Below, piece by piece: positions 4,968 to 62,709 of a stretch of 64,000 nt of DNA. Origin of the DNA: Nitrospirota bacterium. Lineage in GTDB: Bacteria; Nitrospirota; Thermodesulfovibrionia; Thermodesulfovibrionales; JdFR-86. The DNA lies in assembly GCA_963721805.1 (NCBI GenBank), contig CAVRJY010000005.1:19318-83317 (forward strand). The letters run 5' to 3'. Both the position numbers and the translations under genes were made by a program. Position 1 is the first letter of the stretch. Each line of letters opens with the position of its first letter. Under the pieces are notes generated by a model. That model saw only the letters and a program-made list of their open reading frames with translations. It did no database searches and had not been told where the DNA came from.

Positions 4968-5177
4968 GAGCGTCTTGAAAGCGCTCGAAGCGTCTTGAAA
5001 GCGCTCCGAATCGCTTGATGCTGCGTTGGACTTCAAAAACTCGCCCTCTATGTACATCCAAGTACACCATCGGGCGGTTTTCTTGTCCTGCCTTGCCTGA
5101 AGACGATTTAGGCGCGCTTTCGGGGGGAGAGAATAACGGAGCCCCCCGCGCCCCACGAGGTCAACGGCATTGATTGG
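4968..5177 (-). repeat. SRE copy R1 (full length; head variant b, body type 1)
   Basis: Head GGTCAACGGCAT at 5159-5170, core CATCGGGCGG/GTACA motifs. Tail carries a 20-bp tandem duplication (4970-4989 and 4990-5009). Confidence 0.85.
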
Positions 5178-5202
5178 ATGGAAAAGTGGTATTATTCCTG
5201 AA

Positions 5203-5706
5203 ATGGACCTGCTTGAGGGAATATACACGCGCCGGAGCGTGAGGAAGTTCACGGCAGAGGACGTCTCGAAAGAGGCGGTCTCGGAGGTCGTCCGCGCCGG
5301 TACGTGGGCGCCGTCGGGCATGAACAACCAGCCCTGGCGGTTCGTCATAGTCCGCACGCCGGAGATGAGGCGCACACTTGCGGGATACACGAAATACGGC
5401 ATGGTCATCGAAGGCGCGCCGGTCGCCATAGCGGTATTCATCGAGACCAGCGAGATGTACAACGCGACCAAGGACCATCAGGCCATCGGCGCGTGCCTTC
5501 AAAACATGCTGCTCGCCGCGCATGCGCAGGGCCTCGGCGCGGTATGGCTGGGCGAGATACTAAACCGCGCGGCCGAGGTAAGAGTGGCGCTCGGAGTTGG
5601 AGAATCTCTGGAACTCATGGCGGTGCTCGCGATAGGCCATCCCGAAGCAGGAAAGCATCACTCTAAACGCAGGCCGGTAGAAGAAGTACTGCTCAAAGAA
5701 ATCTAG
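5203..5706 (+). CDS. Nitroreductase family protein
   Basis: RRSVRKF...PSGMNNQPWRFVIV...HAQGLGAVWLG motifs. Start moved to the Met after the R1 head. Confidence 0.8.
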   Translation: MDLLEGIYTRRSVRKFTAEDVSKEAVSEVVRAGTWAPSGMNNQPWRFVIVRTPEMRRTLAGYTKYGMVIEGAPVAIAVFIETSEMYNATKDHQAIGACLQNMLLAAHAQGLGAVWLGEILNRAAEVRVALGVGESLELMAVLAIGHPEAGKHHSKRRPVEEVLLKEI

Positions 5707-5710
5707 CCTG

Positions 5711-5884
5711 CCTTCCTTGCCAAAGTCGCGCTAAATACGCGTGATACGTTGTCACGGCTCGGAAATCCGTCCTCCAGAGTACATCTCAGTACACTTGCGG
5801 ACGTTTTCCTCGCCGTTCCTAGTCTGACGCGATTTATCGCGCTTTAAGTATCCGCTGCATAATCGTGCGAGCGGTCAACGGCAT
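5711..5884 (-). repeat. SRE copy R2 (head type 2, body type 2)
   Basis: Tail CCTTCCTTGCCAAAGTCGCG at 5711, head GCGGTCAACGGCAT ending at 5884. Abuts R3 head to head. Confidence 0.85.
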
Positions 5885-6079
5885 ATCTAATTAAGCAGTT
5901 GACCTTGGGGGTGCGGGGGTCCAGCGGCTGGGCCGCGTATAACCCCCGAAAGCGCAGCCAAATCGTCTTCAGACTAGGCAGCGGCGAGAAGATCGCCCGA
6001 TGGTGTACTTGGACGTACATAGAGGGCGAGTCTTTGAAGCCCAACGACGTATCAAGCGATTTGGGGCGCTTTCCCTTCC
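5885..6079 (+). repeat. SRE copy R3 (head variant a, body type 1)
   Basis: AT box ATCTAATTAA plus GCAGTTGACC at 5895-5904. Tail GATTTGGGGCGCTTTCCCTTCC ends 3 nt before the pfkB-like stop. Confidence 0.85.
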
Positions 6080-6082
6080 CGC

Positions 6083-6992
6083 TTAGAGCTCTTCGAAGTG
6101 ACTAAGCGCCTTAAACCCTCTATAGCGGTTCTCTATCTCGCGATAGTCGAGAGAGCGGAGCCTATCCAGGCTAAACGCCTCGACATTAAACGAGGCCATG
6201 ACAGAGCCCATCACTACCGCGCGCCGCATCGCGGCCTCGCCGAAGTCCATCGAGTTCGCGAGGTATCCGATGAACCCGCCCGCGAAGGTGTCGCCCGCGC
6301 CGGTCGGGTCGTAGACGTCCTCGAGCGGGTATGCCGGGGCCGCGAAGACCCCGTTGGCCGAGAACATCAGCACGCCGTACTCGCCGCGCTTTATCACGAC
6401 CGTCTGTGGCCCGAGCGTCATGATCACACGCGCGGCCTTCACGAGGTTGCGTCTCGCCGGTGAGCTGCCGGGCCTCGGCGTCGTTGATCAGCAGTATGTT
6501 GACGAGCTTGAGTGTCTTAAGCAGCGAGTCGCGCTGGCCCGAGATCCAGAAGTTCATCGTATCCATGGCGATGACCTTGGGGGCCTTGACCTGCCCCACG
6601 ACCTCGCGCTGGAGGTCGGGGTGTATATTGGCGAGGAAGACGACCTCGGCCTCGCGGTGCGCGGCGCTCAGTATGGGCTTGAAGGTCTCAAAGACGTTAA
6701 GCTGCGTATCGTGCGTGCGTGCCTCGTTTAGCTCGTATGTGTATGAGCCCTTCCAGCGGAAGGTCTTCCCGGCGACGCGTTCTAATCCCGAGAGGTCGAC
6801 CCCGCGCGATTTGAGGAACTTGACGTGCTTGTCCGGGAAGTCCTCGCCGACTACGGCGACGAGGCTTACGTCCGTGAAGTAGCTGGCCGAGGTCGAAAAG
6901 TACGTGGCAGAGCCCCCGAGCGCGTCTTCGACCTCGCCAAAGGGCGTCTTTACGGAATCCAGCGCCATCGAGCCCACCACCAGTAGTCCCAT
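6083..6992 (-). pseudogene. PfkB-family sugar/nucleoside kinase, frameshifted
   Basis: ORFs 6186..7010 and 6083..6442 are N- and C-terminal halves (DPTGAGDTFAGG motif in the C-half). One extra base sits near 6445-6452 (ACGCAACCTC vs expected ACGAACCTC). Confidence 0.7.
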
Positions 6993-7128
6993 CCTCACAG
7001 CCTCCCGCAAGCGTAATTTCTCGGCGTATTATACACGAGATGGAATCGGGGGAGGCAATTTTGGTGTTGACACACGCGCTGTTTGGCATTAATATCTGTG
7101 CATCCATCAACACACGGAGGAACCGATA

Positions 7129-8804: not shown

Positions 8805-10196
8805 ATGAGATACATTAGGCGATTGTTGATGATTGTTTTATCGCTTGCGCTGTTTGTGGGCTGCGGGCTTGGGCAGATAAAACCGCCCGAGGCCCGTGTC
8901 ACGCCCGCGCAGGAGCCTCCGGCCGCGGACTCCTATCTCTTGATGCCAGTAACCGTCTCGCTCGACAAGGTCGTCGCGGAGCTCGACGGCGCGATCCCCC
9001 AAAGCGATGACCGTGACCGCGGGAACAAGGACTGGAAGGTAATCGGCCGCGTGGGCGGGGAGATCGGACTGCGCTATTACTGGGAGCGGGGCCCCGTCTC
9101 GCTGAGCGTGAGCGGGCGGCGCTTGAGGGCCGAGACCGCGCTCAGATACCGCGCAAGGGTCGGGCTGCGTGCGGGCAAGGGCTGGAAGGAGACGTTTTGC
9201 TGCGGCTGCGGCGACCTGAGCACCGCGCGGATAGGGCTTTCGACCCCAATTTCCATAAACCCTGACTGGAGCATCCACACTAAGATCGCGGCCACGCTTG
9301 GTGACACGGGACACCGCTGCAAGGTGAAGGTGCTTAATTTCGACGCGACTGAACTCGTGACCTCCAAGCTCCAAGACCTGATGAACTCCAAGGCCTCTGT
9401 GGTGGATCGGCTCATACGGGAAAAGGTGGACATCAAGCCCAAGGTGCAGGAGGCATGGCGGATACTGCAGCAGCCGATCCCGGCCGGCGATAACGCAAAC
9501 CTGCTCATAAATCCCACGGGCCTGATGGTCTCGCCGTTAAGCGGGGACGGGAATTCCGTGAGCTTCTCGGTTGGAGTGGTGGCGCAGCCAAGGCTGGTCG
9601 CCGGGGTGCTGCCACCCGTGAGCTCAATCCCTCTGCCGAACCCTGAACCCAACGGCTCCCGGCAACGAGTTTCATGTCGCGCTCGAGGGGGAGGTGACAT
9701 ATGATTATGCCACCCAAAAGCTCGCGGACGCGGTCGTCGGGCATGAGTTCCCGATAGGGGACAAAAAGATCACGATAGCGGGCGCGAGGGTGTACGGCTC
9801 GGGGCAGTCCGTGGTGGTCGAGGCCGCGATCAAGGGCTCGTACGAGGGCACGGTCTACCTGTATGGAAGGCCCGCTTACGACGCCGCCAGCGCGCACCGT
9901 CTATATTCAGGACCTCGACTATACGATAGAGACAGACGAGCTTCCTCGGGAGGGTCGCGGACTGGCTCAGGCACTCGACCCTCCGGCAGGACATCGCGGC
10001 AAAGGCCAGGTGGTACGTCGGCGACAAGCTCGACGATGCCGATGCAAAGATAAACCGCGCCATCAATCGCGAGATCAGCCCCGGCGTATCCTTAAGCGGC
10101 AGCGTCGAGTTGCAGCCCGACCGGGTGATCCTGACCGAGACATCCATTAAGGCCATCGTCGTCGCGAGCGGGACGGTGGCGCTTAGCGTAAGGTAG
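8805..10196 (+). pseudogene. DUF4403-like lipoprotein, three successive +1 frame changes
   Basis: Lipobox-like LFVGCG at the N-terminus. The sensible protein path goes frame of 8805, then frame of 9694 (near 9650), then frame of 9863 (near 9890), then back to the first frame (near 9945), ending at TAG 10194-10196. Confidence 0.6.
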
Positions 10197-10228
10197 GCAG
10201 AAGCGAAAATCATGTTTTGTTATAATAG

Positions 10229-10405
10229 ATGATGAACGAGATAATCTTCGTAGTCGAGCCGGACTTGGAAGGCGGGTATAACGCCCATGCGCTGGGGCAC
10301 AGCATACACACGCATGCCGATGACATGGACGGCCTCAAGCAAAACATCCGAGACGCCATCACCTGCCACTTCGAGGACACGAGTTGGAATCCGGTGCTAC
10401 GATAG
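10229..10405 (+). CDS. HicB-like / UPF0150-fold antitoxin fragment (58 aa)
   Basis: MMNEIIFVVEPDLEGGYNAHALGHSIHTHADDMDGLKQNIRDAITCHFE resembles HicB-type N-domains. It appears to end early and has no partner toxin beside it. Confidence 0.45.
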   Translation: MMNEIIFVVEPDLEGGYNAHALGHSIHTHADDMDGLKQNIRDAITCHFEDTSWNPVLR

Positions 10406-10481
10406 CGCTCTACCTCCGCATGCGTGGCATAGAGGCAAGAGACCACATCGACCCGCTAGGTTGTATTGCCATATAAAGATA

Positions 10482-10510
10482 TTGACTATTAATAGCTATC
10501 AGCCTAATAT
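10482..10510 (+). promoter_or_regulatory. Sigma70-like promoter for the 10580 gene
   Basis: TTGACT (10482-10487), 17-nt spacer, TAATAT (10505-10510). Confidence 0.55.
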
Positions 10511-10579
10511 AATGTCAAAGCAAGTCCTTTGGACTTCAACAGCATTCTTGATTTCTTACAACAAAGGGGCAAATATAAA

Positions 10580-11128
10580 ATGTCAACATCACGACGGAGT
10601 GTAGAAAAACATTTTTTAGAAGCTCCAAAGGAGATTCAAGGCTGCTTTGAACATTTGCCTAAACTGCTAAAAGAGTTCCCCTTAGATGTGAGCCTCGGGT
10701 ATTTATTTTCTAGAGTTGAGTACATTCATAATATGGCACTATATTGCGGAGCTACAAAATTGCGCAGGACAGACTCGGAGCTTACATGGAAAGCTATTGA
10801 ATCGCATCAATTAACACGCGATGGGTTTCGTGAGTTTTTTACAAATATTTACGAAAATAGCATTCCTGACAATATCATACAGAAGATCAAACTAGCGGAA
10901 AAAGTCCGCGATAAAGCCTTGCATGGCAAGACACCGCCAGACAAAGATATTAGACCGGCACTTGTTGCGATAATTGACTATGCTAATTCTTTTAATGATT
11001 TTGTATATGGCATTGCTGGGCTCAGGCCTTTTACGAATAACCTTACTGGCTATAAAGGTCGCGGGGAGTCCTTAGACAAGCGCACAACGCGGTTGATGTT
11101 GCAAGGATTAGGTTTTAAACTTTCATAA
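10580..11128 (+). CDS. AT-rich hypothetical protein with an Rx4H (RDKALH) motif
   Basis: ORF with AAGGGG RBS upstream of ATG 10580. Composition is far below the backbone GC. No family recognised. Confidence 0.5.
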   Translation: MSTSRRSVEKHFLEAPKEIQGCFEHLPKLLKEFPLDVSLGYLFSRVEYIHNMALYCGATKLRRTDSELTWKAIESHQLTRDGFREFFTNIYENSIPDNIIQKIKLAEKVRDKALHGKTPPDKDIRPALVAIIDYANSFNDFVYGIAGLRPFTNNLTGYKGRGESLDKRTTRLMLQGLGFKLS

Positions 11129-11134
11129 TTCCCT

Positions 11135-11377
11135 TTAGGCTGCTACGAGTTCTTCGTTTTGGATGGTAACCTTCGGATTAGGGTTTGACGGAGGCACGGG
11201 AAGCCCCTGTTCGTGGAGTAGGCTAACATGTTCGGCCATGCCCCATTTGGCCTTATAAAGGCAGTCCTCGACGGAATGCCCTATGCCGCTGAACCCTTCG
11301 AGGTCAGGCGAGTAGAAACCGAAATAATCGGGCTCCTTTGTGGCTTCGATAATCAACGAATACGGTATATCAATCAT
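11135..11377 (-). CDS. hicB: HicB family antitoxin
   Basis: 80-aa ORF, YSLIIEATKEPDYFGFYSPDLEGFSGIGHSVEDCLYKAKWGMAEHV. Lies directly downstream of the hicA remnant. Confidence 0.75.
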   Translation of the reverse strand: MIDIPYSLIIEATKEPDYFGFYSPDLEGFSGIGHSVEDCLYKAKWGMAEHVSLLHEQGLPVPPSNPNPKVTIQNEELVAA

Positions 11378-11386
11378 GGCGTCCTC

Positions 11387-11575
11387 CTATTTCCTCAACC
11401 CTGCGGCCTTGAGGATCGCGTTGCATGTCCCGGTGGGGATTTCCTTCGAGCCATGGAAATCGACTCTGATGAGCTTGTCCCAGCCCGGTCGGCTATAGTA
11501 TCGAATCGAGCCCTTTTCCTTTATCTGCCTGAATCCGGCTTCTTAAAGCATGCGGATCAGCTCGGAAAATTTCAT
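11387..11575 (-). pseudogene. hicA: HicA toxin with in-frame TAA at codon 11
   Basis: Minus-strand translation MKFSELIRML*EAGFRQIKEKGSIRYYSRPGWDKLIRVDFHGSKEIPTGTCNAILKAAGL. The stop is TTA at 11543-11545 on the plus strand. Confidence 0.7.
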
Positions 11576-11622
11576 GCCTTATTATAGCACTCCCGGCTTC
11601 AAGTAAATCCCGGACGCACTAT

Positions 11623-11842
11623 CTCTAATAAAAGCCGTTGACCACGGGGGTGCGGGGGGCGTCCGTTATCCTCTCCCCCCGAAAGCGCGCCCAAATCGGC
11701 TTCAGACAAGGGGACCGGTTGGCCCCTTTTCTTTAGGAAGAGGGGTCCGTGACCTCCGCCCGATGGTGTACTGTGACGTACTTAGAGGGCGAGTCTTTGA
11801 AGACCAACGACGTATCAAGCGATTTGGAGCGCTTTCACTTCC
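11623..11842 (+). repeat. SRE copy R4 (solo; head variant b; body with embedded terminator-like hairpin)
   Basis: CTCTAATAAAA plus GCCGTTGACC at 11634-11643. Hairpin GGGGACCGGTTGGCCCC plus T-run at 11710-11734. Tail ends 35 nt before dnaE. Confidence 0.85.
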
Positions 11843-15618: not shown

Positions 15619-15813
15619 CCTTCTTGAAAGCGATCCAAAGTTCCGGGATACTGCGTCACGTCTCGGAAATCCGTCCTCGATGTACGTCTCAGTACACCGT
15701 CGGACGTTTTCCTCGCCGTTTCCTTGTCTGCCGAAATTTGGCCCGCTTTATGGGGTTAAACGCGGCCCAGCCGCTGGACCCCATACCCCGTGGTCAACGG
15801 CGTTAAATTAGGG
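15619..15813 (-). repeat. SRE copy R5 (head variant a, body type 2, unique covarying P2)
   Basis: Tail CCTTCTTGAAAGCG at 15619. Head GGTCAACGGCG at 15792-15802 plus AT box. Confidence 0.85.
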
Positions 15814-15983
15814 ACACCCATACTGCTACCGGCTACTTTGACATAGTATGTCTCAGTGTGATAAATAATAAGTGGAGGTGCAGATATGACATAGGATAAA
15901 ATGGCTATATTTTTTGAAATGGTTTCACCAAGTATAAGACGCCCTTTGGGCCGAAAATGATTGCGTTGTAAAAGGAAAAGAAA

Positions 15984-16166
15984 ATGGAAATTCAGCCGTC
16001 AAAGAAGAGCCAAGCGCTCCCACGTTGTCAGACCAAGATAAGCGGGTCAGGGTATAACTGCACTACCAATGATCCTGGGGTTCAGCAATACATAGGCAAG
16101 GGCATCTTAATTCTATTGATCTGTGTTGGAGTTGCCGTTATATTAAAGGCGATGCCCCGCAACTGA
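15984..16166 (+). CDS. Possible small C-terminally membrane-anchored protein (60 aa)
   Basis: AT-rich ORF with hydrophobic tail GILILLICVGVAVIL. A strong hairpin follows. Confidence 0.3.
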   Translation: MEIQPSKKSQALPRCQTKISGSGYNCTTNDPGVQQYIGKGILILLICVGVAVILKAMPRN

Positions 16167-16194
16167 TCGTTCTGTGCATAAGTAAATAGAGGCT

Positions 16195-16243
16195 ATAGAC
16201 ACCACGGCCCCTCGTTCGAGGGGCCGTGGTGTCTATATGTTTA
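16195..16243 (+). terminator. Very long perfect hairpin (19-bp stem)
   Basis: ATAGACACCACGGCCCCTC ... GAGGGGCCGTGGTGTCTAT. Weak T-run. Confidence 0.55.
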
Positions 16244-16310
16244 ACATGGGATCGATGATCTTGCAATCGTGAATAAAATTAATCGCTAATCAAGAACCTT
16301 CATTGGCGCG

Positions 16311-16511
16311 GGGGCAGCGGGAGCAAACCAGCCACTATTATAATGCCGTTGACCGCTCGCACGATTATGCAGGGGAAGGTTAAAGTGCGAGAAATCGTGT
16401 CAGACAAGGAACGGCGAGGAAAACCGTCCGCAGTCGTACTGGGATGTACTTCGAGGACGGATTTCCGAAGCCGTGACGACGTATCACGCGCATTTCGCGC
16501 GCTTTGAGAAC
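16311..16511 (+). repeat. SRE copy R6 (head type 2, body type 2; core from 16336)
   Basis: GGGGCAGCGGG extension, TATAAT at 16339-16344, GCCGTTGACC at 16345-16354. Tail ends at the stop codon of the response regulator. Confidence 0.85.
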
Positions 16512-24325: not shown

Positions 24326-24457
24326 CCTTCTTCAAAGCGCTCCAAATCGCGTGATACGTCGTCAGTTCTCGAAAACTCGCCCTCGGAGTACATCACAGTA
24401 CACCTCCGGGCGGTCTTCTTGCCCTGCCTTGTCTGAAGACGATTTGGCGCGCTTTCC
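24326..24457 (-). repeat. SRE copy R7 (5'-truncated: lacks head and P1 5' strand)
   Basis: Tail CCTTCTTCAAAGCGCTCCAAATCGCG at 24326. Body type 1 with AAGAC/GTTTT (G-U) helix. Ends at GCGCGCTTTCC. Confidence 0.8.
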
Positions 24458-44181: not shown

Positions 44182-44789
44182 CTCGGCACCTTTATTATAT
44201 GCCTCACCGCGCCGCCTGAGTGCGGGAGTTCGACGTCTATGACCTCGCACTCGACCCCGGCGATCTCCTCTTCGTAACGCGGCCCTTTATTCAGCACGAA
44301 AGCGCCGCCGGGGGCGACTATGTCCCCTGCCCCTTCAATAAATTCCCTCACACTAAATAGCGCGCGCGTCACCGCGATGTCCGCGCTGATGCCCGAGGCC
44401 TCCGAGACCTTGGCGTTGATAACCGTGATGCCCGTAAGATTGAGCCGCCGGATGATATGCCGAAGGAACGCGCACTTCTTCTTCGCGGGCTCGATCAGGT
44501 ATACCGTGATATCCGGGCGCATTATCTTGATAGGCACGCCCGGAAACCCCGCGCCGGTGCCGATGTCCGCGAGGCTGTGCACCTCCGGGCCGATAGCGCG
44601 CAGGTATAGGCAGCTGTCCAGCATGTGCTTTACAGCGATCTCATTGGCGTCGCGCAGCGCGGTGAGGTTGTGCGTGCGGCCCCAGCGGCTGAGCTCGTCC
44701 ATGTGAAGCACCATAGCCGAGACCTGCGCGGCGGTGGCCTCGATGCCGAGGCTGGCGAGGCCGTCTGAGATTATCTCATCAGGCCGCAC
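44178..44789 (-). CDS. rsmG: 16S rRNA (guanine527-N7)-methyltransferase
   Basis: 203 aa with SAM motif DIGTGAGFPGVPIKI. Immediately downstream of mnmG. Confidence 0.85.
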   Translation of the reverse strand: MRPDEIISDGLASLGIEATAAQVSAMVLHMDELSRWGRTHNLTALRDANEIAVKHMLDSCLYLRAIGPEVHSLADIGTGAGFPGVPIKIMRPDITVYLIEPAKKKCAFLRHIIRRLNLTGITVINAKVSEASGISADIAVTRALFSVREFIEGAGDIVAPGGAFVLNKGPRYEEEIAGVECEVIDVELPHSGGAVRHIIKVPR

Positions 44790-46642
44790 TCCGGCGGTCC
44801 CTCTCTAACATTATGATCAGGAGTGAGAGAGCGACCGGCGTGACGCCGGGTATGCGGCTTGCCTGCCCGAGGCTCCGGGGCCTGACCTCCTCGAGCTTGT
44901 GGCGCACCTCGGTCGAGAGGCCGGTGATCGCGGCATAGTCGAACCCGGCCGGGATCGCCATCGACTCGGCGCGCCGCAGCTTCTCTGCCGCCTCGCGCTG
45001 GCGCAGGATGTAGCCCGAGTACTTCACCTCGGTCTGGATCAGCATCGCATCGTCGGCACTGAACTCGGCGGCGGGCGGCGATATGCGCGAGATCGAGGGA
45101 TAGTCCATCTCCGGCCGCTTAAGCAGCGTATCGAGCATCACACTCTCGGCAATCGGCGAGGTCCCGCGCTCGCTAAGTATTGGATTTGCGTCACGCGGCT
45201 TGCAGCGCGTCGTGCGGATGCGCTCGATCTCGGAAAGCACCAAGCGGCGCTTTTCGCTAAACGCACGGTGGGCATCATCAGAAATCAGCCCGGCCTCGTG
45301 GCCCTTGTCCGTCAGGCGCATCTGGGCGTTGTCGTGGCGCAGCAGCAGGCGGTATTCCGCGCGCGAGGTGAACATGCGGTACGGCTCGTTCGTGCCCTTT
45401 GTCACGAGATCGTCTATCAGGATGCCGATGTACGCCTCGTCGCGGCCAAGGATCAGCGGAGCGCGGCCCTGAAGCGAGAGCGCGGCGTTTATCCCGGCCA
45501 TTATCCCCTGTGATGCGGCCTCCTCGTACCCGGAGGTCCCGTTTATCTGCCCGGCGAGGTAGAGACCGCGTACCGCCTTGGTCTCTAATGAGTGCGTGAT
45601 CTGCGTGGGGTATACGAAGTCGTACTCTATCGCGTATGCCGGGCGCATGATCTCGGCGGCCTCAAGCCCCGCGATAGAATGAACCAGCGCGACCTGCACG
45701 TCATATGGCAGGCTCGTCGAGATCCCGTTTGCGTAGTATTCCTCGGTCTTCAGCCCTTCGGGCTCCAAAAATACCTGATGCCGCTCGCGCGCGGCAAAGC
45801 GCATCACCTTGTCCTCTATCGAGGGGCAGTATCTGGGGCCTATGCCTGTTATCTGTCCACTATACAATGGTGAGCGGTCCAGAGATCCACGGATGATCTC
45901 GTGCGTGGTCGCGTTCGTATATGTCATGTAGCACGGGAGCTGTTGGTTCGTGATCTCGCGGGTCGAGTGCGAAAACGGGGGCGGCGGGACGTCGCCATAG
46001 TGAGCGGTCGTCTTTGAGAAGTCTATCGAGCGGGCGTCTATACGGGGCGGTGTGCCGGTCTTGAGGCGGCCCAATCTCAGGCCCATCGCAGGCGAGAGAT
46101 TCGGATATGCCTAACGCGGGGAACTCACCGGCGCGTCCTGCGCTGATCTGGCTCAGGCCTATGTGCATCAGTCCGTTCAGAAACGTACCGGTCGTGACGA
46201 TCACCGAGCGCCCAGCGATGAACACGCCGATGTTATCGATAACGCCTGTGACTCGTCCGCCCTCATGCGTTATGTCCACGATATTGGCCTGCCGGATCGT
46301 GAGGCCCGCCTGCGCCTCGATCGACTGGCGCATATTGGTGCGGTACAGGGCGCGGTCGGCCTGCGCGCGGAGCGACCAGACGGCGGGGCCCTTAGAGAGG
46401 TTGAGCATCTTGAAGTGGATGCCCGAGCGGTCGGTGACGCGCGCCATCTCGCCGCCCAGCGCGTCGATCTCGCGGACTAGGTGGCCCTTCGCGAGCCCGC
46501 CGATGGCCGGGTTGCAGGACATCTGGCCTATCGTATCGAGGTTCATCGTGCAGAGGCACGTACGCATACCCATCCTAGCCGCAGCCAGAGCGGCCTCGCA
46601 ACCGGCGTGGCCGGCACCGATAACTATTACGTCGAATGACAT
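44779..46642 (-). pseudogene. mnmG: tRNA uridine 5-carboxymethylaminomethyl modification enzyme MnmG, split by one frame change
   Basis: ORF 45860..46642 (GAGHAGCEAA FAD motif) and ORF 44779..46086 (GRLKTGTPPRID onward) together give full-length MnmG. The shift lies near 46085-46100. Confidence 0.85.
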
Positions 46643-46674: not shown

Positions 46675-46863
46675 CCTTCTTCAAAGTCGCGCGAAATACG
46701 CGTGATACTGCGTCAGGGCTTCAGAAATCCGTCCTCAACGTACGTCACAGTACGCCTCGGACGTTTTCATTGCCCTTCCTTGTCTGACACAATTTCTCGC
46801 GCTTTAGCAATGAGCTGCCTGCGCGTGCGAGCGGTCAACGGCTTTGATAAGAGGGGGCACTCG
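46675..46863 (-). repeat. SRE copy R14 (head type 2, body type 2)
   Basis: Tail CCTTCTTCAAAGTCGCG at 46675 (32 nt from the mnmG start). Head GGTCAACGGC at 46843-46852 plus TTTGATAAGAG. Confidence 0.85.
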
Positions 46864-46903
46864 GCCCGGCCGCTGCTCCGGAGCTCCCGAGGAAGGCTAT
46901 TAA

Positions 46904-47479
46904 TTAAGCAGAAGATGTTTTATTGAAAGCTCTCCCTGAGTGAATCCATGAAGCAATTACAGCTATCAATAAAACCAAATCAAATAAAATAAGGCATTTT
47001 TCCCAGCGTGTAATATTTTGAAGAGAGTCATAATTAGATATCAAAAAAATCAATAAAGGACCAAGCGGCATAAGAACCAGTAAAAAATTACGCCCCAAGG
47101 CTACAAGCCATAGCTGTCCGCTAGTACTTTGGTGAAAGGTTTCCCATTCAAATGCATCATTGTAAGTTAATAATCTAATTCTTGGATATAAAATGCTTGA
47201 AAAATACCTTCCGATTCTGTAAACCATAAGCTGATTATCGTAATACAGCAAAACAAGAGGTGCCGTTATAATTGGAGCAACGAGCATAATTGATGCAAAT
47301 GATTCTTCTCCATGGAGTTTAACATAAGCCGCAAGTGCACCAGCTAAAATCACTATCAGAACATTAAGTATTGTTGAGTTAATTGTAAGTCTAGTCTTTT
47401 GTTCATCGCGCAAGGCTCGGTATTCTGTGAGATAAACTTCAATATCTTTCTTGTCCTGTATTTCTTCTGACATTAACAA
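46904..47479 (-). CDS. AT-rich polytopic membrane protein, hypothetical
   Basis: 191-aa ORF with four hydrophobic segments. No family recognised. Confidence 0.5.
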   Translation of the reverse strand: MLMSEEIQDKKDIEVYLTEYRALRDEQKTRLTINSTILNVLIVILAGALAAYVKLHGEESFASIMLVAPIITAPLVLLYYDNQLMVYRIGRYFSSILYPRIRLLTYNDAFEWETFHQSTSGQLWLVALGRNFLLVLMPLGPLLIFLISNYDSLQNITRWEKCLILFDLVLLIAVIASWIHSGRAFNKTSSA

Positions 47480-47669
47480 ACACCTTTACCTATCAACCTT
47501 GTCCCAGCTTTCGTTGAAGCCCTAAGGGCTCGCCTTGCCATTATCATAAACTGCCTACATTTATCTGTCAATAATATTTTGCAGCAAGACAACCGTGAGG
47601 CTTAATCATATCGCCATATTCGCATACGTTCGGAACTGGTTTATGGGAAAGAGTTCCCATGGCATCTCT

Positions 47670-48032
47670 CTTCATTAACCATAGTTAATCGAAAGTTAAT
47701 AGAAAACGAATGGCCCCTAATTTTTCCTATTATCTTCGGTTTATATATGAACCAAAGTTTGGCATTCTTTAGTGTATAGTGGAGGCTATGAGTATGATAG
47801 AGTCCTATTTGATGGTCGCGGCAAGTGTTATGGATGTCCGCGCCGCGTGTTCGGATAATGGGCCAAAAACATCGCTTTTTATCCGAACATTCGAACAGGG
47901 GAACTTTTCAAAAGCTAGTAAATCCGGTGGGTTAGCTCCGATTTTGCCCCCAACATCCGAACAAAATCGGCAAAAACGCGCGCGTGCGCGCGCGGTATGC
48001 ATATATATGCCTAAGCGGGGATATCCGAACAT
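47670..48032 (+). repeat. Module X2: second copy of the 360-bp AT-rich module, fused to the head of R15
   Basis: Collinear with X1. GGAGG then ATG at 47794. Inverted repeat GTTCGGATAA (47849-47858) / TTATCCGAAC (47879-47888). (CG)n palindrome at 47977-47994. Confidence 0.8.
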
Positions 48033-48201
48033 GCCGTTGACCGCTCGCACGCGCAGGCGGGAGAAACTTAAAGCGCGAGAAATCAGCGTCAGACTAGGAG
48101 CGGCGAGGGAAACGTCCGAGGGTGTACTGAGACGTACATCGAGGACGGATTTCCGAAGCCGCGACAACGTATCACGCGATTTGGCGCGCTTTGGAGAAAA
48201 C
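48033..48201 (+). repeat. SRE copy R15 (head type 2, body type 2)
   Basis: GCCGTTGACC at 48033-48042. Tail GATTTGGCGCGCTTTGGAGAAAAC. Confidence 0.85.
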
Positions 48202-50695: not shown

Positions 50696-50891
50696 TCTTT
50701 TTCAAAGCGCTCCAAATCGCTTGATACGTCGTCATCAGTCGAAAATAGTCCTCGGAGTATGTCCATATACACCTGCGTCCTATTTTCGCCTTCTTCCTAG
50801 TCTGAAGACGATTTGGCCGCGCTTTCGGGGGTTGGTCGCGGCCCAGCCGCTGGACCCCCGCACCCCCAAGGTCAACGGCTTAGATTAGATA
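50696..50891 (-). repeat. SRE copy R16 (head variant a; private P3 AAAATAG/CTATTTT; GTAT/ATAC P4)
   Basis: Tail GTCTTTTTCAAAGCGCTCC at 50696. Head GGTCAACGGC at 50870-50879 plus TTAGATTAGATA. Confidence 0.85.
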
Positions 50892-51215
50892 TTATCTGAC
50901 AATCGAACGGACGACTTTTAGGATGAGGCGCTGTTTATCTTCACCAGCTTCCTTGACTAGGCTGCTGATTTCCTTTGCCAGTTCCTGTGAAGATTTTTTA
51001 TGATGTGAGAACTCGAAGAAATCCTTCATATCCATTTTCAAAGACTTGGCTATTGCCGCCAGTGTATCCATCGAGGGGAACCCCCTCCCTACTTCAATCC
51101 GGCTAAGGTGCTTCGGGTCTATATCTATCATCTCGGCAAGCTTTTCCTGAGACAAGCCCCTCAGCTTTCGCAGTTCTTTTATCCTTGCCCCAAGTAATCC
51201 TTTTGGTGTCTCCAT
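50892..51215 (-). CDS. XRE-family helix-turn-helix transcriptional regulator
   Basis: 107 aa, LGARIKELRKLRGLSQEKLAEMIDIDPKHLSRIEVG. Confidence 0.8.
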   Translation of the reverse strand: METPKGLLGARIKELRKLRGLSQEKLAEMIDIDPKHLSRIEVGRGFPSMDTLAAIAKSLKMDMKDFFEFSHHKKSSQELAKEISSLVKEAGEDKQRLILKVVRSIVR

Positions 51216-51409
51216 AATCTTCCTCCATCAATAATCGCTTTTCAGGAGGGTTTTTATAACTATCTTAAATGGCGATAAGTAATTGCCTTATCTACATTTG
51301 ATATAGTAAACTCTACATTGCAGATAGATATTAGAGGCAAGTCCGGCTTAATATGCTGAATCATGATGCCGTAAGGGGCACGATATGACGGAAGACAACG
51401 AACTCTAAA

Positions 51410-51805
51410 ATGACACACCTGCACAACAGCCAGCCTGTCGGCATCCACTTCCTTGTCGAGTTTTTCGGCTGCTCGGAGGAGCAGTTGGATTCGCTCCGCT
51501 TCTGGAAGAAGCTGCTTGCGGATGCGGTCAAGGGCAGTGATATAAAGATGCTGAATAAGCACTTCTATCATTTCAAGCCCCATGGCATAACCGGATATCT
51601 CCTGCTTTCCACGTCCCATATATCGGTGCATACATGGCCCGAGTATGCCTATGTCGCCTGCGATGTCTTTAGCTGCGGCGGGAAAGCCGAGACTAAAAGC
51701 ATTGTAAAGCACATTACGGACAATCTTAATCATGACACGGTGAAGATAAAGAAAATGAAACGGGGATTTAGGATTTTTTCTGACAAAGGAGGTCATCTTA
51801 GCTAA
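51410..51805 (+). CDS. S-adenosylmethionine decarboxylase-like (SpeD-family pyruvoyl enzyme), atypical processing site
   Basis: HFLVEFFGC...GITGYLLLSTSHISVHTWPEYAYVACDVFSCG aligns to the prokaryotic SpeD core. The usual Glu-Ser cleavage pair reads Thr-Ser. Confidence 0.65.
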   Translation: MTHLHNSQPVGIHFLVEFFGCSEEQLDSLRFWKKLLADAVKGSDIKMLNKHFYHFKPHGITGYLLLSTSHISVHTWPEYAYVACDVFSCGGKAETKSIVKHITDNLNHDTVKIKKMKRGFRIFSDKGGHLS

Positions 51806-51806
51806 T

Positions 51807-52331
51807 ATGGTTGGGAAAATCGGTTTTCAAACTGAGATAATTCAAGGATATAGAGAAGAATATTTCAAATCAATTTTAAAGCTCGAACCATTATTCCCGA
51901 TTTCCATCCAAGACTCAAAAGATAAAACAATTGAACATTTGAAAACACCTTCAAACATTAATATTTTTCTCAGGAAAGATGAAAGCATAATCGGCTGGAT
52001 CTTGGGGACGCCACAAAATACTATCTATGAAGAACTAAAAACCGATGATATTGAGATCAAGCCCGATGACGAAATGTATTATATTGATAAAGTTGTTGTA
52101 GTACCTGAACACCGCGAAGGTCTAACCTTTCTCAGGTTGGGAGACGCGCTAATCAATGAGGCAAAAAAACGAGGTTGTCATAAAATATCTGCACATATCG
52201 TATCTGACAACGGACTCCATAAAATAATTATAAGGAAATTTGGCAAATTTATCATAACAAGGAGAAAAGTGTCTTTAGCAATACATGATTTTATTCCATT
52301 TGAGTATATTGAAATATGCTTACCTAAATGA
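51807..52331 (+). CDS. GNAT-like acetyltransferase (cargo paralog 2)
   Basis: 174 aa. Shares blocks N-I-x-x-FL, ELKxDD, PDxxMYYI, RG-x-x-KIS-x-H with 36335..36850. Confidence 0.55.
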   Translation: MVGKIGFQTEIIQGYREEYFKSILKLEPLFPISIQDSKDKTIEHLKTPSNINIFLRKDESIIGWILGTPQNTIYEELKTDDIEIKPDDEMYYIDKVVVVPEHREGLTFLRLGDALINEAKKRGCHKISAHIVSDNGLHKIIIRKFGKFIITRRKVSLAIHDFIPFEYIEICLPK

Positions 52332-52338
52332 CTTACCG

Positions 52339-52881
52339 ATGAAAGGCGAGGGCACCAAGGAGAACAGCACAGAAAAGCTGTTGTCTTATGGCGGCAGGAT
52401 TGCTGAGCTATCCATCGGAATTACCGCAAGTCAATTTTTAGTGTTCGTTTTCGATTATCTTCTTTATCCGTTTATCGTTTATCAATTCGGGCTTCTCATG
52501 GGCGGGATTGTAATGACTATTTTTTCATTGATTGCTTGTTTACTTGTAATGAAAGTTTATGATTGGTCTAAACGGGATTGGTTAGGCATTGAGTCAATAA
52601 AACGGTTAAAGGAATACACAGGAGGTAGAAAAACAGGAAAGATACTGTCATGGATATTAAGACAGAGTAATCCAGTGGTCATGCTATTTCTCTCAATCAA
52701 GTTTGACCCATTTATCGCAACTATATACATGAGACATGGAAGCCACCAATATAACGGCATGAGCAAGAGGGATTGGAAGATATTCTTTACAAGTCTTGTA
52801 CTCAGTAATATCTATTGGACACTCGCAGCCTTCACAGGGGTTACGGTCATAGAGTACGCATGGAGGCACTTATTCAAATAA
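52339..52881 (+). CDS. AT-rich polytopic membrane protein, hypothetical
   Basis: About 180 aa with four or five hydrophobic segments. The stop TAA at 52879-52881 directly abuts the R17 head. Confidence 0.5.
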   Translation: MKGEGTKENSTEKLLSYGGRIAELSIGITASQFLVFVFDYLLYPFIVYQFGLLMGGIVMTIFSLIACLLVMKVYDWSKRDWLGIESIKRLKEYTGGRKTGKILSWILRQSNPVVMLFLSIKFDPFIATIYMRHGSHQYNGMSKRDWKIFFTSLVLSNIYWTLAAFTGVTVIEYAWRHLFK

Positions 52882-53058
52882 GCCGTTGACATTGGGGGCG
52901 CGGGGGGCGTCCGTTGCAGTGCCCCCCGAAAGCGCGCCCAAATCGTCTTCAGACAAGGCAGGGCGAGAAGACCGCCCGATGGTGTACTTGGGCGTACATA
53001 GAGGGCGAGTCTTCGATGCCCAACGACGTATCAAGCAATTTGGCGCGCTTTAAAGAAA
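52876..53058 (+). repeat. SRE copy R17 (head variant b, body type 1)
   Basis: GCCGTTGACA at 52882-52891. Tail GCGCGCTTTAAAGAAAGC ends 5 nt before the rodA stop. Confidence 0.85.
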
Positions 53059-54196: not shown

Positions 54197-54405
54197 ACGT
54201 TTAATAAGCCGTTGACCTTGGGGTATGGGGTCCAGCGGCGGAGCCGCGACCAACCCCATAAGGTGCGATAAATCGTCTTCAGGCAAGGAAGGGCGAGGAA
54301 AACGTCCGCAAGTGTACTGTGATGTACTCTGGAGGACGGATTTCCGAAGCCCTGACGCAGTATCAAGTGATTTAGCGCGCCTTCAAAAGGTGTGCAAACA
54401 GCTCT
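54197..54405 (+). repeat. SRE copy R18 (solo; head variant a, body type 2) inserted between mrdA and rodA
   Basis: GCCGTTGACC at 54208-54217 and tail GCGCGCCTTCAAAAGG at 54375-54390. Flanked by AATGCGCACTGTTGGC at 54174-54189 and 54406-54421. Confidence 0.85.
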
Positions 54406-59782: not shown

Positions 59783-60893
59783 ATGACTAAAGAGGAAATA
59801 AAGCTGCAGGCAGGCCTTCTTAGGGAGCGCACCGATTCCCTAAGAGGGTATCTTTGATCTCCCCACCCTCACGCACAAGCTCGAAGAGATAGACAAGGCA
59901 CTCGGGGCCGAGGACACATGGGCCTCGCACGAGCGCGCCACCGAGCTCAACCGCCAGAAGACCCGCATCCAGTCCACGCTCGCGCCGTTTGAGGCCGCCG
60001 ACCGGAAGATGACATACATCGAGAGCTCAATCGGGATGCTCGACGAGGAGGGCGGCGAGATGTTCGCCCCCGAGCTCGCGGCAGCGCTTAACGAGCTCAT
60101 CCCTGAACTTGACGGCCTCGAGCTTCGGTGCCTGATGTCCGGCGAGCGCGACATCTCAAACGCGATAGTCACGATACATCCCGGCGCGGGCGGCACCGAG
60201 AGCCAGGACTGGGCCCAGATGCTGATGCGCATGTACCTCAGGTGGGCCGAGACGCACGGCCTCGCAACCGAAATCCTCGACCTCCAGCCGGGCGACGAGG
60301 CCGGGATCAAGAGCGTCACGTTCGAGGTCACCGGGCCGTACGCATACGGCAACCTCAAGACCGAGGCCGGGGTGCACAGGCTCGTGCGCATCTCGCCGTT
60401 TGACGCGGCGAAGCGCCGCCACACCTCGTTTTCCGCGGTGCTCGTATACCCCGAGGTCGAGGGCGACGTCGAGGTCGAGCTCAGGGACGAGGACATCAAG
60501 ATGGACACGTTCCGCGCCTCGGGCGCAGGCGGGCAGCACGTCAACAAGACCTCCTCCGCGGTGCGGCTGACGCACATCCCCTCGGGCGTGATCGTGAGCT
60601 GCCAGAACGAGCGCTCCCAGCACAGAAACCGCGAAAGCTGCATGAAGATACTGAAGGCCAAGCTCTACGACCTCGGGCTCAAGGAGCGGGAAAACGAGAT
60701 GGAGGGCATCGTCGGGGAGAAGAAGAATATCGCCTGGGGCAGCCAGATACGCTCGTACGTCCTGCAGCCCTATCGCATGGCGAAGGACCATCGCACGGGA
60801 GTCGAGATCGGCAACGTGGACGCGGTACTCGACGGGGCACTCGACCTGTTCATAAAAGCTGCACTGAAAAATAAACTGGGGCGGACGTCTTAA
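59783..60893 (+). CDS. prfB: Peptide chain release factor 2, requires programmed +1 frameshift
   Basis: ORF0 ATG 59783 runs to an in-frame TGA at 59855. The +1 frame continues DLPTLTHKLEE... into ORF 60009..60893 (SPF and GGQ motifs). Confidence 0.9.
59843..59858 (+). promoter_or_regulatory. prfB +1 frameshift site (AGAGGG TAT CTT TGA T)
   Basis: SD-like AGAGGG 3 nt upstream of slippery CTT followed by TGA (59852-59857), as in the classical RF2 autoregulatory site. Confidence 0.85.
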
Positions 60894-61084
60894 TAAAGTC
60901 GCGCCAAATCGCTTGATACTGCGTCACGGCTTCAAAGACACGCCCTCTATGTACATCCCAGTACACCATCGGGCGGTCTTCTCGCCCTTCCTTGTCTGAA
61001 GACGATTTCTCGCGCATTAAGTTTATTCTTGCGTAATCGTGCGAGCGGTCAACGGCATGATTTGAGCGGCCCATCCGCTGCCCC
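60888..61084 (-). repeat. SRE copy R19 (mosaic: head type 2, body type 1)
   Basis: The tail overlaps the prfB stop (TCTTAATAAAGTCGCGCC). Head GGTCAACGGCAT at 61047-61058. Extension GGCCCATCCGCTGCCCC. Confidence 0.85.
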
Positions 61085-61133
61085 AAAGTATGATTAGATT
61101 GGATATGTGCCATCACTTGACACTACAAAGTTG

Positions 61134-61912
61134 CTAAATTTTTTGGCCTGTATTAAGCCGGCGCTCTAGAGCCTCAAGGAACTTTATTGAAGATGCGACA
61201 TGTGTATAGATTAGTAGACTCTCTTCGTAATTGAGGAAGCTATTGTCATGGGCAAGGCTTTGGTCATTACGTACTTTATTAAAGGCCTCAAGTGTTGAAA
61301 TGCTTGATTTTAGGATGCGCTCGGTCATTTCTGACTCCAAATGCCCATGCACCTTTAATGTTTTAACGTACTCGCCAACCAAACTATGCAATGGCTTATC
61401 TTTGTCTGTGGATATTCCGTGATTTTGGCAAAGTACTCGAAGATACTTAATAGTAAAGGTGTGCAGTCTGTCCAAACCGACCTCTGGCTCGTGTTTTTCA
61501 ATGGATTCCCGGACAGCCCTTGCCAACACAGCAAACTCTCGTTCAGGACTATTAGGGGTTAATGTCACAACTTCTGGGATTCCTGCTGCCTCAGAAAGCC
61601 TTGCTAAGGCCCTGCGACAATCATCATACGCTTTTAACATTTCCGCGTTAGCGAACTCTACGGAAACGCACTGCATTAGGTCTGTGAGCAGTTTGGCAAC
61701 TACATCGTTTGACTCCCGTGTCCAAAATGCTCTAAGCCGGTTTGCTTTTTGAAACCACTTCCGAAGTTGTACTTCTCGTCTAAGATGCTTAACCCAGTAC
61801 TATCAAAGACAAACTCATCGAATAAGCGAGTTGTAAAATCCAAAACGTAGCCACTTCCCATGCCGAAGAGTGCCTCAAAGTTCCGTTTTTCAATTTTCGT
61901 TAGGTCAGACAT
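61134..61912 (-). pseudogene. Abortive-infection-type protein (Abi_C/HEPN-like C-terminus), frameshifted
   Basis: ORF 61700..61912 (GYVLDFTTRLFDEF...DEKY) and ORF 61134..61676 (VRNDQSLAH motif) join as ...GSGSKANRLRAFW... if homopolymer runs near 61745-61760 are corrected. Confidence 0.6.
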
Positions 61913-61966
61913 AGATTCCTGCGCACAAAAATAATTAATAAGTCTGCATCTACCTTAACCTTTTTA

Positions 61967-62021
61967 TATAGCGCGAGATTTCCGAGGCCGTGACGCAGTA
62001 TCCAGGAAATCTCGCGCTATA
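61967..62021. repeat. SRE fragment R20: foldback built from SRE pieces
   Basis: Perfect 17-bp inverted repeat TATAGCGCGAGATTTCC / GGAAATCTCGCGCTATA. Stem and loop carry GATTTCCGAGGCCGTGACGCAGTATC from the SRE 3' region. Confidence 0.6.
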
Positions 62022-62028
62022 ATGATTT

Positions 62029-62235
62029 TTACTGCCCTACGGCTGTGAGGTCGAGTTTAAAGAGCGTATTGATCGGGAATTTCTTGCTTGCTTCGAGGAT
62101 TTCGATACCCACGAGGTCGTTTTGGGCCGTAGTGTGCAGGGCTACTCCTTCCGCGATCTCGATCGCGCCGTCAGGCTTCTTGGGTGAAAGCTGTATATAT
62201 GCCGCATCGGCCTCTTTATCGTACTTAATTTTCAT
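62029..62235 (-). CDS. DUF2283 domain protein (putative antitoxin-like partner)
   Basis: 68 aa, MKIKYDKEADAAYIQL...LVGIEILEAS. Overlaps the upstream DUF4258 gene. Confidence 0.65.
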   Translation of the reverse strand: MKIKYDKEADAAYIQLSPKKPDGAIEIAEGVALHTTAQNDLVGIEILEASKKFPINTLFKLDLTAVGQ

Positions 62236-62476
62236 TTGCGCCTCCCCAAGCCTTACGCTTAAGCGGATATGCTGTTATTACAAATGTCTCGCCGCCTGAA
62301 AGCTCAAAAACCACCTTCAGCGGGTATCCAGAAAAGCGCTTTCCAAAGCGCTTGATCGCGACTTGTTTGCCCGTTTGAGACTCAAGGAGTTCAGGCGTGC
62401 CTATTGCCTCCGAAACATCATCAGCGGTGATCCCGTATAGTTTCATGTTGCTCCGGGCATGGCGCGACAGTCTCAT
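62225..62476 (-). CDS. DUF4258 domain protein (putative toxin-like partner)
   Basis: 83 aa, RLSRHARSNMKLYGITADDVSEAI...FVITAYP. Confidence 0.6.
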   Translation of the reverse strand: MRLSRHARSNMKLYGITADDVSEAIGTPELLESQTGKQVAIKRFGKRFSGYPLKVVFELSGGETFVITAYPLKRKAWGGANEN

Positions 62477-62513
62477 AAATTATTGTACCAGAATGTGAAA
62501 GTGATAAATAGTA

Positions 62514-62709
62514 TATATAACTAAGACGTTGACCTTGGGGGCGCGGGGGTCCAGCGGCTGGGCCGCGTCTAACCCCCGAAAGCGCGCCCAAATCGGCTTC
62601 AGACAAGGCAGGGCGAGAAGACCGCCCGATGGTGTACTGGGATGTACATAGAGGGCGAGTCTTTGAAGCCCAACGCAGTATCAAGCAATTTGGAGCGCTT
62701 TGAAGAAGG
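62514..62709 (+). repeat. SRE copy R21 (head variant a, body type 1; near-consensus reference copy)
   Basis: GACGTTGACC at 62525-62534. Helices listed in the findings. Tail ...GAGCGCTTTGAAGAAGG ends at 62709. Confidence 0.9.

Follow-up and report, generated by a model that had tools for sequence, protein, structure and literature searches.

The 64-kb stretch of Nitrospirota DNA analyzed here (contig CAVRJY010000005.1, hereafter the window) contains the copies R1-R21 of a structured repeat (SRE) with a unit of 170-210 nt (~180). Low-GC accessory DNA, when present, lies at one end of the repeat, the head, and we propose that the head serves as an oriented junction site at which accessory modules are joined to the genome. 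We assign this reading a probability of about 0.4. The observations behind it are established: a structure that is conserved across phyla, the head-side polarity of the cargo, the occurrence of empty, one-armed and direct-array forms, and the mosaic makeup of the copies. The layout is one of many small accessory modules scattered among essential genes, each bounded by the same repeat end.

An iterated nhmmer profile and a covariance model (CM) run without filters were used to take a census of the window. The profile gave 21 matches and the CM gave 19 cores with no extra copy. In total, the core hairpin is present in 19 copies, R9 consists of a head alone and R20 is a weak fragment; together they account for 5.3% of the window. 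There are 15 occurrences of the head motif GCCGTTGAC, compared with 0.66 expected by chance. A preliminary description of this DNA had reported seven ordered pairs, each a minus-strand copy followed by a plus-strand copy with the heads inward, and the profile and CM census located all of them: R1 or R2 with R3, R5/R6, R8 or R9 with R10, R11/R12, R14/R15, R16/R17 and R19/R21. The mirror-image inner junctions it had pointed out at 35560-35579 and 36905-36924 were exact on a sequence check. The copies and their cargo are given below in window coordinates; long and short denote two alternative head hairpins, and each SRE was detected by both nhmmer and the CM unless indicated otherwise.

4993-5175, minus strand: SRE R1, long-hairpin head variant, tail toward holB (CM, 78.7 bits)
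5176-5717, plus strand: nitroreductase module (Pfam PF00881) from R1 head to R2 tail, GC ~0.60
5718-5888, minus strand: SRE R2, short-hairpin head, left arm of empty head-to-head doublet
5889-6073, plus strand: SRE R3, long variant, right doublet arm, junction GGTCAACGGCATATCTAATTAAGCAGTTGACC
10197-11625, unstranded: R4 head-side cargo, low GC; HicB-like open reading frame (ORF), unknown 182-aa ORF, minus-strand HicB/HicA-like pair
11626-11837, plus strand: SRE R4, long variant, 30-nt extra hairpin in core, tail toward dnaE
15621-15806, minus strand: SRE R5, long variant
15807-16340, unstranded: 0.5-kb low-GC islet between R5 and R6 heads
16341-16509, plus strand: SRE R6, short variant
24328-24466, minus strand: SRE R7, core and tail, no head, between CCG/Fe-S gene and purL
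28731-28928, minus strand: SRE R8, short variant, extra hairpin inserted
28929-29442, plus strand: module from R8 head to R9, hicB-like gene and hicA (Pfam)
29443-29513, minus strand: SRE R9, head module alone, no core (nhmmer; absent from CM matches)
29514-31025, unstranded: R9/R10 cargo, Cthe_2314 HEPN, DUF2442, non-coding X1 element
31026-31201, plus strand: SRE R10, long variant
35406-35601, minus strand: SRE R11, short variant, including upstream GGGGCAGCGGCTGGG extension
35602-36904, plus strand: R11/R12 cargo, 199-aa membrane protein and GNAT, GC 0.30-0.42
36905-37094, plus strand: SRE R12, long variant, tail abuts stop codon of PilZ-like gene
40946-41032, plus strand: SRE R13, 3' half alone, preceded by small GC hairpin element
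46677-46849, minus strand: SRE R14, short variant
46850-48029, unstranded: R14/R15 cargo, 191-aa membrane protein and non-coding X2 element
48030-48197, plus strand: SRE R15, short variant
50698-50887, minus strand: SRE R16, long variant
50888-52875, unstranded: R16/R17 cargo, XRE and 178-aa ORF (minus), GNAT and 198-aa ORF (plus)
52876-53057, plus strand: SRE R17, long variant
54205-54388, plus strand: SRE R18, solo, no cargo, fills mrdA-rodA gap of mreBCD-mrdA-rodA operon
60890-61062, minus strand: SRE R19, short variant, tail overlaps prfB end
61063-62518, minus strand: R19/R21 cargo, Abi_C, 70-aa ORF, R20 fragment, DUF2283, DUF4258
61977-62017: SRE R20, weak fragment (nhmmer)
62519-62707, plus strand: SRE R21, long variant

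A ~19-nt tandem duplication (GAGCGCTTTCAAGACGCTTC, x2) is present in the R1 tail at window 4955-5000.

The copies are divided evenly between the strands (10 plus, 10 minus), and the cumulative GC skew is monotonic along this uniformly G-skewed leading strand. The head-side 300 nt had a lower GC content than the tail-side 300 nt for 20 of 20 copies (sign test ~1e-6). Orientation alternates in 13 of the 16 steps among the 17 full-length copies (binomial p = 0.011). Of the eight low-GC islets in the window, seven are in contact with an SRE head, and no copy (0/20) lies inside an islet between cargo genes; the copies are located at islet edges with the head inward. The interiors of six pairs have a GC content of 0.30-0.47 compared with ~0.63 for the backbone, which agrees with the AT-rich interiors seen earlier. 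The head-side pattern and the alternation in the window are beyond chance, and the polarity and alternation statistics bear out the earlier view that this is an unusual way to organize accessory genes: the architecture is real and non-random.

Pfam was used to annotate the cargo. Most of the earlier assignments stood, with matches to nitroreductase, HicA with its partner, HEPN, DUF2442, two GNATs, XRE, Abi_C and DUF2283/DUF4258, but the gene called SpeD-like had no Pfam match. The HEPN protein is of the Cthe_2314 type, and the other cargo ORFs encode membrane or unknown proteins. No recombinase or transposase was identified by Pfam among the cargo ORFs of the window, no tyrosine recombinase was found among the window ORFs, and no insertion sequence (IS) element is present in the window. 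The backbone consists of housekeeping genes (metG, holB, dnaE, purL, nadE, purF, mnmG, rsmG, mreBC, mrdA, rodA, prfB, cytochrome c7). X1 (window 30667-31025) and X2 (47670-48029) are versions of a ~370-nt non-coding module that are 80-89% identical. They are fused straight to the R10 and R15 heads, where they replace the usual TCTAAT pre-head, and contain ~5 copies of a ATCCGAACA-like repeat and a CGCGCGCGTGCGCGCGCG-TTTTT hairpin. Two possible identities for the module are the end of a different mobile element and an iteron-like array for protein binding.

All of the configurations expected of site-bounded modules are present in the window. R2 and R3 abut head to head and are cargo-free. R1-nitroreductase-R2 and R8-hicBA-R9 are fused, direct tail-to-head arrays, and R17-rodA-R18 is a direct array that encloses a housekeeping gene. 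R18 has neither cargo nor low-GC DNA alongside. R4 is one-armed: its head-side cargo is 1.4 kb of low-GC DNA with two HicAB-like pairs and an unknown ORF, and no trace of a left arm was detected by reading the sequence or by the CM. R7 and R13 have no head and R9 has no core. Because a doublet, direct arrays, a solo copy and the one-armed R4 coexist with the pairs, the constant feature is not the pair but the location of low-GC DNA, when present, at the head. The preliminary description had suggested that cargo was inserted into the center of a head-to-head SRE dimer. The empty R2/R3 doublet fits this idea, but it is too narrow to accommodate the one-armed units (R4 here and L045, L013, L054, L067 and L085 in other lineages), the direct arrays and the solo copy.

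Alignment of the copies shows that the SRE consists of a head module followed by a 95-125 nt rod-like, mostly unbranched hairpin. The head is sharply bounded and highly conserved, (A/T)N-CTCTAAT-N-AATGCCGTTGACC, and almost every copy has a TnTAAT-like motif at a constant distance from GCCGTTGAC. The head is followed by either of two alternative hairpins, the short form GCTCGCACGATTATGC or a long form containing the palindrome CCAGCGGCTGG. In short-head copies, a related GGGGCAGCGGCTGGG motif lies on the side of CTCTAAT that faces the cargo. The closing stem of the core hairpin is AAAGCGCGCC-AAATCG / CGATTT-GGCGCGCTTT and its apical stem-loop has a conserved GTAC-N6-GTAC. Past GCGCTTT the tail decays to a purine-rich stretch and then to unrelated sequence, and comparison of the alignment with the flanks gives a sharp boundary at the head and a fuzzy one at the tail. 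R4, R8 and R13 have an extra GC-rich terminator-like hairpin of ~30 nt (AAGGGGnCCGGnTGGCCCCTTTTCTTT...GGGGTCCGTGACC) at one loop position (11708-11759, 28838-28880 and 40902-40953), and the remaining fold is kept. The tails of ten copies (R2, R7, R8, R11, R12, R13, R16, R17, R18, R19) come within 0-30 nt of the stop codon that closes a convergent neighboring gene; for R12 and R16, this codon falls within a common GACTAGTTG motif at the end of the tail.

Each head type is found with each core type (four combinations), which indicates that the copies are mosaics that exchange segments. The pairwise identity of the copies ranges from 0.63 to 0.90 with a mean of 0.78. The two arms of a pair are 0.67-0.83 identical and no arm has its own partner as its best match, in line with the earlier remark that the arms are different sequence variants. 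Three other ideas about the repeat were considered and rejected. ARAGORN finds one tRNA-Gly, distant from the SREs, which excludes a tRNA-like origin. The apical loop resembles RUACARGGAUGU, the CsrA-binding consensus, but about half of the copies have no GGA in this loop. A K-turn is excluded by the lack of a G-A step in the bulged strand.

Related elements were recovered from several genomes by scanning with a degenerate pattern that describes the apical hairpin. The scan returned four loci in an Acidobacteriota metagenome-assembled genome (MAG), eight loci in a Syntrophorhabdaceae MAG, and matches in a second Acidobacteriota MAG, one Gammaproteobacteria MAG and one Bacillota MAG. The cross-phylum alignment has the same helices with compensatory changes. 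A CM built from this alignment identified 59 sites in 54 metagenome loci, nearly all of which had been retrieved by a second pattern scan. Covariation statistics were calculated from 66 distinct sequences using shuffles and slid partners as controls, and the covariation is strong. Standard pairs occupy 91.6% of core cells compared with 70.2% in shuffles and 27-41% with slid partners, and 16 of the 21 pairs vary on both sides. There are 322 double-sided changes versus 110 in shuffles, and 74 G-U pairs versus 24 A-C mismatches. The sense strand folds more stably than the antisense strand. This difference and the G-U excess mean that folding is a property of one particular strand, with RNA the most likely folded form and single-stranded DNA a possible one. 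Almost no variation is seen at the unpaired AGG, CCG, GAGG and GAC positions or in the apical loop U-N-N-G-A-Y. These results identify the SRE core as a structured element that is conserved across phyla in at least five bacterial lineages.

Database searches returned no described counterpart. At the gathering threshold, Rfam 15 gave tRNA hits alone in the window; R12 had no Rfam 15 match at E<=10 and the SRE-like loci of other phyla had none at E<=1. No relevant literature on the motif strings or the architecture was found in the searchable library. The exact SRE family was unmatched in the JGI metagenomes and appears lineage-restricted, and blastn against the PLSDB plasmids gave no match for SRE or X1. 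The two viral-contig pattern hits are coding sequence and hence chance matches, and an origin from a plasmid or phage was rejected.

A folded sense strand raises the prospect that the SRE is a functional RNA or a cis-acting transcript element (an insulator, terminator, stabilizer or small RNA) selected at the borders of foreign genes, where outward transcription would buffer housekeeping genes from islet transcription or the reverse. The covariation and G-U bias fit this explanation, as do the toleration of extra hairpins at a fixed loop position in R4 and R8, which is seen in structured RNAs, the ten tails close to neighboring stop codons, and the position of the Syntrophorhabdaceae copies, 6/6 of which resemble elements of 5' untranslated regions. 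We nevertheless regard it as quite unlikely. A promoter and terminator scan detected no site that recurs at a fixed SRE position and no consistent promoter or intrinsic terminator, the orientation relative to tail-side genes is mixed, and selection alone leaves the arrival of a 180-nt element on both sides of an islet unexplained.

The polarity of the cargo was next compared in other lineages. In the Acidobacteriota MAG locus L005, a minus and a plus copy with the heads inward surround a 1.4-kb low-GC gene between two housekeeping genes, and a similar inverted pair in L024 surrounds a 0.6-kb gene. The arms of these pairs are of different subtypes, as in the window. Among the metagenome matches, 33 of 45 cases overall have less GC on the head side than on the tail side. 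The high-scoring copies in hosts of ~0.56 GC all have a head side of 0.36-0.47 and a tail side of 0.50-0.58 GC, and elements in hosts of 0.65-0.70 GC are without a GC step. Low-GC polarity on the head side thus recurs in a second phylum. Inverted pairs occur outside the window, and single copies are more frequent. L045, L013, L054, L067 and L085 are solo copies with one-gene low-GC cargo and no partner, and in L045 the cargo stops directly at the start of a host gene. Cargo at the metagenome loci is mainly small lipoprotein- or membrane-like ORFs. The strains represented by L092 and L093 have flanks that are 99% identical and have cargo and head module in common. Their only difference is that, in L093, an unrelated 150 nt (9972-10121) replaces the 314-nt core and tail of one SRE-like arm (L092:2048-2361). 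The retention of head and cargo without the core shows that head and core are separable.

These units invite comparison with a non-autonomous transposon with long terminal inverted repeats, resembling a mobile insertion cassette (MIC), whose transposase would be encoded elsewhere; R2/R3 would be its miniature inverted-repeat transposable element (MITE) form and the solo copies its decayed units. MICs are an established category, inverted arms do enclose cargo, a cargo-less doublet exists, and units of a pair plus cargo are found in the Acidobacteriota MAG and in independent metagenome assemblies. The preliminary description had likewise offered cargo flanked by 180-bp terminal inverted repeats as one of two readings, and as a transposon this reading is not supported. 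No target-site duplication was detected at any of 8 pairs, where the longest direct matches of 4-6 nt are within shuffle expectation. The outer ends are the least conserved part of the unit, with tails that are ill-defined, and the arms are heterotypic and no more alike within pairs than otherwise. No transposase is located inside the pairs. One-armed units are frequent in other lineages, direct arrays occur, and L093 has had core and tail replaced with head and cargo kept. The transposon is therefore an improbable explanation for the units.

Relatives of the source organism and independent assemblies were used to follow individual junctions. The closest relatives of a backbone protein (the DUF401 neighbor) have 72% amino acid identity, followed by Nitrospirota/Thermodesulfovibrionales at 50-58%. 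A 14-kb contig from a relative has the PilZ-DUF401 synteny that adjoins R12 here and has no SRE; its other flank is non-syntenic, so it does not represent a clean empty site. A short ENA contig (L038) contains a DUF2442-HEPN cassette with 79% nucleotide identity to the window cargo. Past the HEPN stop codon, the contig ends with CTCAATCAATGCC, the start of an SRE head in the position and orientation of R9. This junction indicates that cargo and head have stayed joined over substantial divergence. Homologues of the HEPN cargo also occur in an island without SREs in a Thermodesulfovibrionales MAG, and in the unrelated contig L036 they are enclosed by direct repeats of another kind, ~190 nt long and 92% identical (1492-1567 and 4154-4238). 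The L036 repeat separates cassette-like groups, one with HEPN and one with a PemK toxin-antitoxin pair.

The window comes from a 97-kb metagenome-assembled contig, and in Logan assemblies of the same organism contig breaks coincide with SREs (L031). Both facts would fit an assembly artefact in which low-GC fragments of other genomes were stitched into the MAG contig via shared repeats. This is highly implausible. An independent Logan assembly from the source sample reproduces the order DUF2442-HEPN-R9-hicA-hicB-R8 head. The Acidobacteriota pairs were also reproduced separately in independently assembled metagenome contigs (L005 in L043, L024 in L092), which argues against an artefact, and the 10-33% divergence between SRE copies is too great for assembly graphs to collapse on them.

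A repeat of the REP (repetitive extragenic palindrome), ERIC (enterobacterial repetitive intergenic consensus) or MITE type could instead propagate independently of cargo mobility, inserting by an A+T-rich TCTAAT-like target that is common only in foreign low-GC DNA; copies would then accumulate at islet borders, with the pairs as a by-product. The very high density of copies, the cargo-free R18 and R7 in housekeeping gaps, the truncated R7 and R13, the cargo-free Syntrophorhabdaceae family and the fixed position of the TnTAAT-like motif are all consistent with such a repeat. It is an unlikely account of the window, since it leaves unexplained both the exact, head-inward placement at islet edges, with no copy inside an islet, and the conserved cargo-SRE junction in L038. 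The absence of strand bias is also contrary to IS200/IS605- or REP-like single-strand transposition.

In the junction-site reading, the SRE head would be a recombination junction for a trans-acting enzyme encoded outside the window. Modules would move or be swapped via SRE-SRE exchange, which could be site-specific or could be homologous with SREs as portable homology, and the units would not be cut-and-paste transposons. Accessory low-GC DNA would be attached to the genome at SRE heads and nowhere else. SRE orientation would alternate because most accessory modules are bounded by two heads, and the chromosome would be divided into head-internal accessory modules and tail-internal housekeeping segments. 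Inverted pairs may form by insertion at the center of a head-to-head doublet such as R2/R3, or from back-to-back cassettes, a route suggested by the divergent operons between R16 and R17.

Several observations weigh against this reading. No recombinase, transposase or nuclease linked to SREs was found in the window or in ~100 related loci. One tyrosine recombinase lies beside SRE-like copies in L048, and this link is probably coincidental: close homologues at the same gpsA locus adjoin an integron-like array without the SRE core, in which small ORFs are separated by 300-nt palindromic repeats with AAC...GTT ends. Inspection of the head showed no dyad symmetry and no second binding arm as in a classical tyrosine-recombinase core site. 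A single integrative crossover leaves direct, not inverted, flanking sites and does not explain the inverted pairs, although direct arrays do occur. The copies have diverged to ~67-90% identity and show no sign of recent activity, and whole-module presence/absence polymorphism was not observed among the relatives and independent assemblies. Finally, the Syntrophorhabdaceae elements (L003, L004, L014, L017, L020, L022) are sense-upstream of a gene start in 6/6 cases and have no cargo. They are located 50-80 nt upstream of the ribosome-binding site and start codon of pckG, LarA-like, acetoacetate-decarboxylase-like, sensor kinase and other genes. The Syntrophorhabdaceae element looks like a mobile 5' leader, and its placement points to a different or further role.

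Should the head prove to be a recombination junction, the SRE would represent both a new system for handling cassettes and a new kind of structured nucleic acid. A wider proposal, which we consider rather doubtful, is that the SRE core is the cis-acting part of an undescribed gene-cassette system: a new, widespread structured RNA or folded single-stranded DNA, with a trans-acting recombinase or RNA-dependent enzyme that would capture, exchange or retain cassettes at its 5' end. Such a system, operating in several phyla, would be the equivalent of integrons and dif modules dispersed over the chromosome. If the head is not a junction, the SRE is still a useful marker of foreign-DNA borders in poorly studied phyla. 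The covariance model makes the question testable on complete genomes and transcriptomes.

Other features were observed outside the SRE system. An integron-like platform that is unrelated to the SRE core is present in the low-GC genome of L096 (1-4900; also L095 and L097), where a gene for a 292-aa XerD/IntI-like recombinase is divergent from a small-ORF array with 100-300 nt nested palindromes that have AAC...GTT ends. In the window, GC content is only ~0.46 at 501-1500, in the half of the metG ORF (249-2420, minus strand) that encodes the C terminus, compared with 0.63 for the genome, with no SRE near; part of the gene may have been replaced through recombination. The mnmG (GidA) gene at 44779-46642 is split into two overlapping ORFs (44779-46086 and 45860-46642), which may reflect a frameshift or an assembly error, and DUF4403 is likewise split (8805-9704 and 9694-10053). 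A 49-nt unit in the PSP1-domain gene (2584-2731) recurs with 94% identity at a spacing of 99 nt.

Known stores of acquired genes include integrons, islands at tRNA genes, transposons and the dif modules of some plasmids. The SRE modules share many features with the last of these. Accessory modules on Acinetobacter plasmids are bounded by inversely oriented pdif XerC/XerD sites (PMC13141974, PMC6449649), which divide the plasmids into C and D modules, and their logic is one of alternating, inversely oriented asymmetric sites, toxin-antitoxin-rich cargo, and fused and empty modules (PMC13141974). SREs are also asymmetric, alternating sites (13/16 alternations) with every segment between inverted sites, and their small toxin-antitoxin-rich modules have empty and fused forms and no recombinase inside, as expected if the enzyme acts in trans. 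The sites themselves differ. The SRE is a 180-nt structured site, whereas dif has a 28-bp arrangement of XerC arm, 6-bp spacer and XerD arm, and inspection of the SRE head revealed no dif-like sequence or dyad. The setting is chromosomal and the cargo is always on the head side, in contrast to the C and D types of dif module.

Integrons resemble the SRE system in their cargo of toxin-antitoxin pairs, GNATs and small membrane or secreted proteins without a recombinase, and in having one structured, covarying, strand-specific imperfect palindrome, attC, per cassette; one-gene cassettes adjoin one structured element in the other lineages with SREs. The R'' (RYYYAAC) and R' (GTTRRRY) boxes of attC are not present at the SRE stem base, where the sole GTT (in GCCGTTGACC) is outside the palindrome and lacks an AAC partner within its copy. 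The SRE helices covary, but the apical GTAC-N6-GTAC hairpin and GAGG are invariant in the 66 sequences, whereas the attC apex is variable. SREs are dispersed and alternating with cargo genes in either orientation, whereas an integron is a direct array next to intI/attI. Classical integron recombination is excluded by the missing R boxes, the invariant apex, the alternating orientation and the lack of intI in the window.

REP units, bacterial interspersed mosaic elements (BIMEs) and REPIN doublets (PMC3116915, PMC3337134) are further comparators. Together with ERIC sequences they resemble SREs as high-copy intergenic structured repeats with mosaic variants, inverted doublets (as R2/R3), singlets and old, diverged populations. 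At 170-210 nt versus 20-40 nt for REP, the SRE is longer by a factor of four to eight, and its head is non-palindromic. The GTAG motif of REP units was not found in the SRE alignment. SREs are linked to cargo and REPINs are not, and no REP-associated tyrosine transposase is known for the SRE. MITEs and MICs share inverted repeats around passenger genes, the lack of a transposase and a cargo-less doublet form; SREs differ in having no target duplications, poorly conserved outer ends, structured, heterotypic arms of 180 nt, and common one-armed units. An IS200/IS605-type palindrome-associated transposable element (PATE), which would insert with an orientation bias relative to replication and without inverted arrangements, is disfavored by the 10 plus and 10 minus copies on a uniform GC skew and by the inverted arrangement. 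The SRE is distinct from integrons, dif sites, MITEs/MICs, REPINs and PATEs in these comparisons and is absent from Rfam. It is best filed with the site-bounded accessory modules, on an apparently undescribed structured element.

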